A DNA stretch of 64,000 nt, from contig OZ024742.1 in NCBI GenBank assembly GCA_964016885.1, forward strand, positions 137,950,001 through 138,014,000, written 5' to 3'. The DNA is from Eledone cirrhosa (lineage: Eukaryota). Shown here one piece after another: positions 48,686 through 52,762 of this stretch. A program made the translations under genes and the position numbers. The notes below the pieces were generated by a model, which was given only the letters and a program-made list of their open reading frames with translations, searched no databases and was not told where the DNA came from. Each line of letters begins with the position of its first letter. The stretch's first letter is position 1.

Positions 48686-49346
48686 TTCTCTCTCTCTCTC
48701 TCTCTCTCTCTCTCTCTCTATATATATATATATATATATATATATATATATATATATATATATATATATATATATATATAAAGAATTATTATATCTACCA
48801 ACATATGTATACGGATGCATACCTATGCTAACAAATATATATGTTTTGTCTTAGTAACTTTGTGGTTCTATGCAAGGGGATGCAGAACAATTATATGAAA
48901 GACGTAAACAAGGAAATTATTAAAATCGACTTACTTACTAAAATTTCACTCCAACTAATTAGTAAGGGAATAAATATCGTTACGGAACGTACCCACAGAG
49001 AAACCTTACGTCATCAGGGAGTCTATTCTCAGCTAAGCTTCCAGGCAATGCGAGGACACTGGGAACTCATATAAAAATAATTCAGTGGATGGAAAAAAGC
49101 GAGCGGGGACTAAATTCCAAGACATTGAAACAATTCACTACCTACTTGGTCAGTGGCATTCCACTCCTCACCGATTAACCTCAGTGTCACGTGATTGATT
49201 CTTTTGAATTTGCCACTGACCAAGTAGGCAGTGAATTTTTTCAATGTCTTGGAATTTAGTTCCCGCTCGCTTTTTTCCATCCACTGAATTATTTTTATAT
49301 AAGTTCCCAGTGTCCTCGCATTGCCTGGAAGCTTAGCTGAGTATAG

Positions 49347-49427
49347 ACTCTCTGATGACGTAAGGTTTCTCTGTGGGTACGTTCCGTAACCATATTTATT
49401 CCCTTACAGAAACTAATTAGTTGGAGT
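49347..49427 (+). ncRNA. Type I hammerhead ribozyme (family G, unit 1)
   Basis: ACTCT-CTGATGA-cGTAAGG..CCTTACa-GAAAC-TAATTA-GTT-GGAGT. Confidence 0.85.
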
Positions 49428-49869
49428 GAAATTTTAGTAAGTCGATTTTCATAATTTCCTTATTTACGTCTTTCATATAATTGTTCTGCATCCCATTGCA
49501 TAGAACCACAAAGTTACTAAGACAAAACATATATATTTGCTAGCATAGGTATGCATCTGTATATATATATGTTGGTAGATATACTAATTCTTGATAATTT
49601 CCCCAAATTATTTGTTGAGCAAAACCTGCCGAAATTACTACTATGGTTCATGGTAGTGGCTAGGCCCTTATCTTATAAGCACTCCACTCCTCACTGATTA
49701 ACCTCAGTGTCACGTGATTGGTTCTTTTGAATTTGCCACTGACCAAGTAGGCAGTGAATGTTTTCAATGTCTTGGAATTTAGTCCCCGCTCGCTTTTTTC
49801 CATCCACTGAATTATTTTTATATAAGTTCCCAGTGTCCTCGCATTGCCTGGAAGTTTAGCTGAGAATAG

Positions 49870-49950
49870 ACTCCCTGATGACGTAAGGTTTCTCTGTGGG
49901 TACGTTCCGTAACCATATTTATTCCCTAACAGAAACTAATTAGTTGGAGT
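49870..49950 (+). ncRNA. Type I hammerhead ribozyme (family G, unit 2)
   Basis: ACTCC-CTGATGA-cGTAAGG..CCTAACa-GAAAC-TAATTA-GTT-GGAGT. Confidence 0.82.
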
Positions 49951-52762
49951 GAAATTTTAGTAAGTAAGTCTATTTTCATAACTTTCTTCTTTACGTCTTT
50001 CATATATATATATATATATATATATATATATATATATATATATATATATATATATATATATATATATATATATATATATATACAGAGAAGAATCCGATTG
50101 TACACAAAATGTATGTCCTGTTTAGTTGAGAAATGTGCATCATTGTAAGTTTGTTTTATTTTAGGTATGAATATGATAATGTGTAGTTTTTAATATGCAT
50201 GAATATTGGAAAGGGGATTGTGTACATACAATAACAATAACGACCCCATACTGCAAATTATTCTATCGGTACACACGTATACGAGGACATAGTTACTTAA
50301 CTTCTAACCTATTTACGTATATATATATATATATATATACGTATATAGGTTTGTAACTATATATATATACATATTTATCTCCCCATCCCGCCTCTCTCTC
50401 TCACTTAGTCTCTTTCTCCCTCTCTCTCTCTATATATATATATATGTGTGTACATACTTACATTAATATGTGTGCATATGTCTATATGCATATTCATATG
50501 CATATATACATAAATATACATATATAAATGCACGTGTGTGGCATGAAGAGTTAGGGAAAGAAAGGGAAAATATGTTTATATATGCCATCAGTTACCCATA
50601 TATTCATATATATCCATATATATATATATATATATATATATTATATATACATACATATATGTGTGTATATATATATATACATATATGTGTGTGTATATAT
50701 ATATATATATATTCATTTATATATATGTGTATATATATAATAATATATATATATATACCTACATATACACATATATATTATATATATATATATATATATA
50801 TATATATATATGTATATATATACATATATATATATATATATATATATATATATATATATATATACCTACATATACATATATACATATATATATTTTATAT
50901 ATATTTATATATATATATATATATATATATATATATATATATATATACCTACATATATCTTTCTTTGCTTATTCAATTCTGTGATGTTTTAGGCGGTTGC
51001 TTCATTACTGATAACCTAAATATCTTTTTGTATACAGTAATTAAGGAATGGTTCCATTTGAATATGGCACAACAAACAGATGATGCCATCTTAAATTAGC
51101 CATCTACCACACTGTTGTGAATCTCTTAAATGAACACGCACACACATTTATATTGACACCCAGTACACATATTGACTCACATTTATACTCATTTTGATTC
51201 AAATATGTGTAAATGTGATCATCGAATACATACATGTACGTGTATGTATATAAGTGTGGATGCACGTATGTATATATGTATGTGAGTTTAATATGTGTAT
51301 GTAAGTATGTTTGTATTGGTGCACACACACACATACACACACGCACACCCATGCACACACGCACAGTCACCCACCCACCACCCATATATATATATATATA
51401 TATATATATATATATATATATATATATATATATATATATATATATATATGTATATATATACAAACACACACGCACGCACACATATAGATATATCTCTGTA
51501 TGTGCTTGAAAAAAGTCATTGGTGCAGTAAAATACATTTCAAAAACATTAGGGATGTCTTATTAATTATTTGTATTCTTTAATGAACAACTGTTTTACAG
51601 TCACACTTATAATTGTTCAAGCACACACACAAGAACACACATACATACATATATATTTGTGTGTGTGTGTGTGTGTGTGAGTGTGTGTTTATAAACGTGC
51701 TGTAACAGGAGAAATATACTCAATACGTATCCTATAGTTCATTTAGGTCTCATGATGCACTCCTAGATACTGCAATATTCTCGTTGATTCTGATATTTCC
51801 CGCAACATAAACATGCATAGCTTGGTGCAGGAGTTCCTAATACACGAATGGCACCCATATAGTTTTTACACTGTGTCTCTGTGTAGACATTATCTCTAGA
51901 CGGTTCTTCACTACAAAGCTTGACATTCCCCAACTCTGCCCATATGCATTTGAAAGGAATAAAATGGAGTCGAAAGGAACTGCATCTCGCCTTCATTCGA
52001 TGATTAGTGTTTCACATATTGGTGTATAGGAACATTCTAGGCATGACATTAACATGCAGATGGCTGAACATTACACAGACACGTTTGCTTCTAACGTATA
52101 TTTCAGCGAGAGTCAGCATGTACCTGTAAGACAAAGCTAAAACATAAAATTGCAGAAGCTCATGCCCTACATAAAAGGAACAAAATGGTTTTCGCTTTGT
52201 ATTAGTGAGAAATATAGGATATTACACGTTTCTGTCTTCTACCAAATAACTGAACAGTAAACCGGAGATGTTCAGAAAATGCTCACACATGAACACTCAC
52301 CAGCTTGAGTTTCGGCTAGTAATATCATAAACCAACAGGATCCGTATTGTTACATACAAAGGTATATATAAATATACTAGGTTTAGCAAACAAACCTTAA
52401 TATAATAACAATACGCTTAATAAGCAATATTACTGTAGTGTTACACACCTACAGCCACCACAAGAAACTGCACACCAGGATACCTATGGATGCGTACAAA
52501 CACACACATATATATACTACGTCTCACATACACCCTTATATAATAATGTGCTGAATTACAAATAACAGAAATTTAAGAGACTTAGGGATTTCGCCCTCGC
52601 ATCGAACAAGAACTCATGTAGATAACGTGAGCCATCTTTATTTTATAGTTACCTGAAGGTAAACCACGCAAGTGGGATAGCTACTACATTATCTAAGCCA
52701 CATACGAGATTACAGACCAAAGGTAGCAACGAAAACGTGTTGGAGATAACTATACTATAATA

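Follow-up and report, generated by a model that had tools for sequence, protein, structure and literature searches.

The hammerhead insertion in the window and its family

The window analysed here is a stretch of 64,000 nucleotides (nt) of the Eledone cirrhosa genome (assembly GCA_964016885.1, contig OZ024742.1, positions 137,950,001 to 138,014,000 of the forward strand; all window coordinates below count from its first letter). Within it, an insertion at 48781-50006 sits between (AT)n tracts and consists of a minus-strand arm followed, head to head, by a plus-strand arm with two hammerhead ribozyme (HHR) motifs (Table 1), and it is one aged insertion of an abundant, protein-free hammerhead repeat of about 527 nt. 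A first-pass annotation, made from the letters alone, had described two same-strand HHRs with predicted cuts after 49422 and 49945, exactly 523 nt apart, in a tandem repeat preceded by an inverted arm of about 380 bp. These coordinates were confirmed, with an arm of 378 bp (48781-49158), CTGATGA cores starting at 49352 and 49875, and the 10-nt palindrome ACTAATTAGT at 49412-49421 and 49935-49944. The tandem arrangement stands in so far as two motifs lie one period apart, whereas the plus arm comprises only about 1.6 units; the window period is 523 rather than about 527 nt because of a 4-nt deletion. The region was also said to lack open reading frames (ORFs), and this was borne out: the longest plus-strand ORF overlapping 49156-50003 has 72 amino acids (aa), and two minus-strand frames (96 and 90 aa) gave no Pfam family above cut-off.

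The three segments of the window insertion differ from one another by 3.8-4.2%, so this copy is not among the youngest, and both of its ribozymes are weakened, HHR1 by a private C>T at 49351 that creates a G-U pair beside the cut and HHR2 by a private T>A at 49928 that disrupts a stem II pair. The high similarity of the repeats had been taken as a sign of recent activity, which suits the family more than it does this copy, with its decay of about 4% between segments. A transcript begun to the left of the insertion would have 76 of its 83 HHR1 bases paired to the inverted arm, so that release of a unit at this locus would need an internal start.

Table 1. Features of the insertion and its flanks (window positions)
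Feature	Position	Strand	Remark
Left target flank, (CT)16 then (AT)31 microsatellite	48687..48780	.	
Inverted arm, 378 bp	48781..49158	-	family positions 316-527 + 1-177; terminates on its outer side at fixed site B (177 nt past cut)
Third hammerhead motif	48948..49022	-	inside inverted arm; broken by a 6-nt deletion that takes out GAAA
Arm junction	49156..49158	.	3-nt microhomology (GCA)
Plus arm, ~1.6 tandem units (267 + 523 + 61 nt)	49156..50006	+	terminates on its outer side at fixed site A (62 nt past cut, family numbering)
E-box-like motif GTCACGTGAT	49186..49195; second copy around 49711	+	candidate internal promoter element, putative function
TATA-like motif	49294..49303; second copy at 49817	+	~55 nt before core; putative function
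HHR1	49347..49427	+	stem I, core 49352-49358, long stem II, GAAA 49409-49412, palindrome 49412-49421; predicted cut after 49422
Cut-to-cut unit, 523 nt	49423..49945	+	37% GC; self-paired (linear z -3.3, circular z -3.1)
Internal copy of site A (TTTCATATA)	49471..49479	+	
Long hairpin within 115-nt tail	49532..49583	+	pairing kept across subfamilies
Internal copy of site B	49588..49596	+	private T>G at 49593
HHR2	49870..49950	+	core 49875-49881; predicted cut after 49945
Right target flank, (AT)40 microsatellite	50002..50082	.	

The first-pass annotation had named a local duplication as the reading that would follow if no other genomic copies were found; exact matches to the motif number 1,373 for a 26-mer and 9,169 for a 22-mer (the latter count taking in related families of slightly different period too), with 0 for the reversed controls. 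Among 49 near-full units (476-540 nt, giving the family unit of about 527 nt), at least six subfamilies can be distinguished, the most distant sharing about 80% identity with the window unit; the GC content is 36-37%. In the majority unit, frames do not exceed 77 aa; folded as a circle, this unit reaches a z-score of -8.2 (window unit -3.1). Arms extend up to 2.8-3.8 units, while two or more tandem complete motifs occur in only 14 of 79 end-anchored loci. At the other extreme, a satellite of at least 35 units fills 18.5 kb (G000:C5:84680000-84698499; L159 and L160) with both ends open, and its units show 93-96% identity to the majority and carry array-specific variants not shared with the sampled dispersed copies. 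In another array (L156), two neighbouring units are 99.8% identical where the array otherwise stands at 95%, pointing to a later duplication at the DNA level.

Judged by its sequence, the family would class as a non-LTR (long terminal repeat) retrozyme, with a hammerhead in each unit, no coding capacity, dispersed dimers to multimers, low GC and a self-paired unit. Identity with an autonomous Penelope-like element (PLE) was rejected, the unit having no ORF for reverse transcriptase (RT) or GIY-YIG endonuclease. The E-box-like GTCACGTGAT is conserved in 126 of 138 units and the TATA-like motif is variable (exact in 62 of 171). Introns can occur in PLE terminal repeats; a splice-donor-like GTAAGT motif lies just past the cut (window 49435-49442), its exact 8-mer being present in 184 of 258 units. 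No scars of A-to-G editing were seen (A>G 135/23,232 vs T>C 211/31,842, p 0.25). Family variants are present in contigs of three runs of unrecorded kind from one sample, from which nothing on expression follows. The open-access literature yielded no report of this family, although supplements were not covered and may describe related elements.

Fixed ends, arm pairing and CT tracts

Arm ends were analysed in 235 arms at 129 loci from ribozyme-, A- and B-anchored sampling, with 14 overlapping loci removed beforehand (L120, a duplicate of L119, was in addition left out of the motif, divergence and 5'-end analyses). In the family numbering, which counts from the predicted cut, site A is position 62 and site B position 177, with a tail of 115 nt between them. 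A total of 215 of the 235 arms stop at A (103) or B (112), and 201 of these 215 ends adjoin AT or CT repeats; genome-wide junction patterns gave 2,271 A ends and 1,230 B ends. The 93 head-to-head pairs at the 129 loci comprise 75 of A with B, none of A with A or B with B, and 18 with one other end, and the A+B pairing is found in each sampling class (29, 27 and 19). The position lists taken alone gave 19 A+B and 2 B+B. Sites A and B each end in UAUA directly 3' of a predicted hairpin, and pairing in the tail hairpin is maintained mostly through one-sided changes. No target-site duplication in unique sequence was found in 68 two-armed insertions, while one within (AT)n would be hidden. At L029, the B end is followed by (GATA)n instead of (AT)n.

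Fold-back of a single strand was considered as a general origin of the inverted arm and rejected, since it would always nest one arm within the other, which is seen in only 47 of 75 pairs (41.8 in shuffled pairings). Two independent priming events per insertion fit these data best. The insertions have two fixed ends that lie on opposite sides of an AT repeat, which makes copying by Penelope-type enzymes likely. The proposal that this is a retrozyme holds as regards a retrozyme-like, ORF-less, multi-copy element with a selected hammerhead fold, whereas the inverted arm is not incidental to it and would be the second primed strand of a Penelope-type insertion. Endonuclease-bearing PLEs, as described in PMC8557442, PMC3846280 and PMC11167929, likewise form partial tandems with an inverted 5' copy, a tail at one end only, two internal starts, (TA)n targets and no discernible target duplication. 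The purified anole enzyme, for which a dimer is predicted, cuts AT-rich DNA, extends both strands and has two internal RNA start sites bracketing the tail (PMC11167929). Unlike PLEs, this family has no ORF and its tail is 115 nt rather than the 30-40 bp given in those texts (PMC8557442, PMC3846280); its ends share UAUA with the target, whereas the anole start sites are described as not homologous to the target (PMC11167929). No report of twin priming in PLEs was found in the open-access literature.

One subfamily has CTCT in place of CTTT at site B. Among loci not chosen by their B end, a B end with (CT)5 or more before (AT)n occurs at 6 of 9 with internal CTCT and at 0 of 26 with CTTT (p 5e-5). 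Genome-wide, the ends number 264 with n of at least 4, 9 with n=3, 7 with n=2, 67 with n=1 (a class that may stem from either subfamily) and 1 other. A comparable process is template slippage at initiation in the eel long interspersed nuclear element (LINE) UnaL2, where, according to PMC1636434, a short template repeat just 3' of an RNA hairpin is recopied in a telomerase-like manner. UnaL2 differs in being a LINE with a ready terminal pentamer repeat (PMC1636434), whereas here the start would be internal and of PLE type, at a dinucleotide arising from one point change, as judged from genome copies only. The open-access literature gave no report of repeat synthesis or initiation slippage by PLEs.

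The hammerhead and its RNA template

The motif is atypical, with an extra C after CUGAUGA, an extra A before GAAA, a two-part stem II of 50 nt and a GUU triplet. Core and spacing are kept in 146 of 179 complete motif regions. Stem II variants among the 146 intact motifs are compensatory (GTAAGG/CCTTAC 67, GAAAGG/CCTTTC 31, GTAATG/CATTAC 7, GGAATG/CATTCC 5 and GCAATG/CATTGC 4), 6 show a double change in stem I, 127 have the exact palindrome, 135 have the extra C and A, and 135 have the GUU triplet. As the motif copies are related by descent, this covariation represents a handful of independent changes rather than 146. An Rfam search gave no hammerhead match to the motif, either at the gathering score or at E<=10, and the isolated motif folds no better than shuffles (z -0.5 and -0.05). 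The palindromic stem III had been thought to suit a dimer, and the 10-bp palindrome duplex is indeed predicted at -9.0 kcal/mol. The stem covariation is strong and supports a hammerhead fold under selection, which is of type I and predicted to be self-cleaving. PLE hammerheads as presented in PMC4209133 share the extra base between positions 9 and 10.1, the G10.1-C11.1 pair, a long helix II, a 5-bp helix I, a small palindromic helix III and covarying families, and are reported there to cleave weakly, probably as dimers. The second extra base before GAAA, the conserved internal loop of the two-part helix II, and the GUU triplet of 135 of the 146 motifs set the present family apart from those in that text.

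The arms bear on whether the RNA was cut. Most end-anchored arms (102 of 135) read through the cut site. Length is preserved at 221 of 230 junctions, and 7 more share one common +1 variant, so that the RNA was continuous across the cut site in these cases. In the analysis of 5' ends, confined to arms with an A or B end and leaving out L164-L171 as repeats of earlier loci, 26 of 169 arm ends fall at -1 to +13 of the cut (expected 7.3, p 2e-8). Arms that pass one ribozyme stop at the next cut site in 16 of 95 cases (expected 3.8), which argues for linear, singly cut templates at least in part. The strongest hairpin showed no excess of 5' ends (ratio 0.74), nor did the putative transcription start (positions 428-465) act as a barrier (16 ends vs 13.3 expected). 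This pile-up suggests, as an indirect trace, cleavage in vivo and linear templates. The templates were probably a mixture: the arm ends support linear RNAs that had been cut at one ribozyme upstream, and suggest that the next one was intact, and circles are possible.

A probable Penelope-type route, its rivals and its meaning

We consider it likely, with a probability of roughly 0.78, that this hammerhead repeat, with its fixed ends beside (AT)n, is copied by the RT-endonuclease of a candidate PLE. Tandem copies would be transcribed from an internal promoter upstream of the ribozyme, and some transcripts would be cut by the hammerhead, probably as a palindrome dimer, with many junctions staying uncut or being religated, a step to which the arm ends lend indirect support. 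A PLE enzyme, probably a dimer, would then nick both (AT)n strands and prime one complementary DNA (cDNA) at A and the other at B, as the ends suggest. A slip at initiation would recopy the first template dinucleotide, so that the CUCU-at-B subfamily would gain a new (CT)n. The variable length of the arms is seen directly, and would arise from cDNAs that run through intact junctions or off a cut 5' end; the two cDNAs would join head to head, and their junction frequently shows an overlap of a few bases. A stronger version, to which we give slightly less than an even chance, would make the PLE RT an asymmetric dimer with its own fixed start site for each strand on a small hammerhead RNA (possibly a circle), capable of telomerase-like recopying and of RNA-dictated microsatellites, one U-to-C change at site B having turned on (CT)n at hundreds of loci.

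Several observations weigh against this route. The minimum-energy fold is more stable than the active monomeric one by about 3 kcal/mol. Of 9 Xenopus dimers, 8 went uncleaved in vitro in the work described in preprint 10.64898/2026.07.22.740005. The 5'-end peak lies at +5 to +13 rather than at +1 (7 of 169 at -1 to +4), with BLAST ends accurate to 10-20 nt only, and the excess does not reach significance when only the ribozyme-anchored loci are taken (10 of 78, p 0.13); an AAATTT palindrome at +7 could favour joins, and stalling at a folded ribozyme could mimic a cut end. Pairing of the ends is not absolute, as L161 is a true B+B, a B/B pair lies nested in L153, and in L141 the partner of B is an end at 190. 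Moreover, the near-strict use of one site per strand contrasts with the anole enzyme, for which PMC11167929 describes the same start sites on both strands without strand difference. In the CT subfamily, 4 of the 17 scorable insertions also carry a CT tract past the opposite end, compared with 5 of 99 overall (p 0.03); in L184, a (CT)12 end goes with a standard internal site. No autonomous partner was found, as 17 further Neptune-like and 30 GIY-YIG loci (47 of more than 10,000 candidates) do not carry this unit as their own terminal repeat.

A competing account concerns the template and takes up the double cleavage and ligatable ends proposed in the first-pass annotation. Double cleavage followed by ligation would give a circle, and a PLE enzyme copying round it would produce tandem arms; circles have been demonstrated for coral, mussel and axolotl retrozymes (PMC7229834). 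Tandem units within an arm are here no more diverged than opposite arms (2.9% vs 3.4%; 33 insertions, p 0.41), the window's segments are all similarly far apart, and several insertions share derived changes across all of their segments (at 7 sites in L101), while the length of the longest arms, the stable circular fold of the majority unit and the private variants of the long array also agree with a circle. Young, uniform arrays would yield the same similarity, however, so that shared private variants were not decisive as a test of circle against multimer, and the satellite is itself a possible multimeric source. Nor does a closed circle predict the stops at the next cut site, tandem complete motifs are scarce in end-anchored loci, and cleavage proved dispensable for insertion by the anole PLE in vitro, as PMC11167929 reports. 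We hold the circle as the main route to be possible, though somewhat less likely than not. It seems improbable, on the other hand, that the copies are merely 5'-truncated terminal repeats of an autonomous PLE and not a self-propagating non-autonomous family. Their end structure is that of PLE pseudo-LTRs, the sample of potential partners is small, and most animal PLE hammerheads sit in truncated copies, according to PMC4209133; yet arms cross the junction into another unit and in the sampled copies never run on into coding sequence, the 5' flanks of 49 unpaired arms held a single tblastn match to a PLE protein (about 940 nt off), the subfamilies retain the unit form, and the majority unit lacks long frames.

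As regards the CT tracts, ordinary DNA slippage after insertion, or a preference of the CUCU subfamily for pre-existing (CT)n(AT)m, would dispense with any stutter of the RT. The far-side tracts and L184 speak for this, as do the compound CT/AT tracts that exist in the genome, including the window's left flank. Yet the faithful n=2 is the rarest of the ends, whereas internal copies stay at n=2 in 96 of 100 among the matches listed (229 in total); tract length does not follow insertion age (rho 0.03, 21 of 30 loci measurable), young copies already having n=7-21; (CT)4+ is found at only 4 of 322 background AT-tract edges; and 13 of the 17 far sides are without a CT tract. Slippage or target choice is accordingly rather unlikely, and stuttering by the RT is, on these genomic patterns, a fairly probable source of the (CT)n tracts. 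Lastly, local duplication with fold-back, or ordinary satellite DNA that carries a hammerhead-like motif by chance, could draw on the missing Rfam match, the unremarkable folding of the isolated motif and the one long satellite, but is contradicted by thousands of dispersed copies, compensatory stems, fixed ends and the outcome of the nesting comparison, and we give it next to no weight.

Autonomous PLEs are plentiful in the genome (16,064 and 10,597 first-look candidates), and a fragment of a presumed one lies next to the insertion. The minus strand of window 46968-48472 holds the decayed 3' half of an autonomous Neptune-like PLE, ending at (AT)n (46917-46971); the part at 47379-48472 assigns it to a large family whose terminal repeat differs from the hammerhead unit. 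In intact relatives of 975 aa (L073), the N-terminal part includes an asparagine-rich stretch, and there are two alternative 3' ends separated by about 65 nt. As their ORF gave no Pfam family, we presume it to be a PLE from what we take to be RT and GIY-YIG motifs. The Neptune-like fragment contains a small palindromic insertion (48483-48620) with a degenerate hammerhead-like motif (palindromic CAATTG, GTT triplet), to which a copy at 15770-15860 (near 15800) is related. Elsewhere in the window, a further inverted-arm pair (93 nt, 95%) lies at 45115-45757, together with a 43-nt direct repeat whose copies are spaced 506 apart, and three more hammerhead-like motifs of other families lie at 14985-15065 (+), 18399 (+) and 21861 (-). 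In an autonomous GIY-YIG family (3' ends at L194, L197, L199 and L213), the longer end has (AT)5-17, a short tail and (ATT)1-12 before (AT)n, which may reflect the same stutter acting on a different unit; the hammerhead-like motif of this family carries a U-A pair in its core, with one additional base on each side of stem II.

Among known systems, the metazoan non-LTR retrozymes of PMC7229834 and 10.64898/2026.07.22.740005 are described as similar in their ORF-less tandem units, type I hammerhead, low GC, self-pairing, range from dimers to long arrays and co-occurring PLEs, and one axolotl motif is also reported to have a mismatch at the base of helix II. The unit of 527 nt (476-540) exceeds the 150-450 given in PMC7229834 and falls within the 51-972 of 10.64898/2026.07.22.740005. 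Unlike the present family, retrozymes are not described with paired fixed ends in these texts, and the word 'inverted' is absent from the main text of PMC7229834.

The class of element to which this family belongs is already known. Mobilisation of animal retrozymes by PLEs has been proposed from co-occurrence and homology, and the thousands of insertions found here bear the PLE end signature, which has a bearing on how retrozymes are mobilised. According to PMC11167929, the anole study saw no cleavage in vivo. The arm ends described here suggest that cut RNAs served as templates, which bears on the role of PLE-type hammerheads. Telomerase has its closest relatives in the PLE enzymes, and a single-base change that arose naturally in the template and is followed by a new (CT)n would allow repeat addition by such an enzyme to be assayed directly. 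If the stronger version given above is true, PLEs and their retrozyme passengers would be a source, and not only a coloniser, of microsatellites in such genomes.

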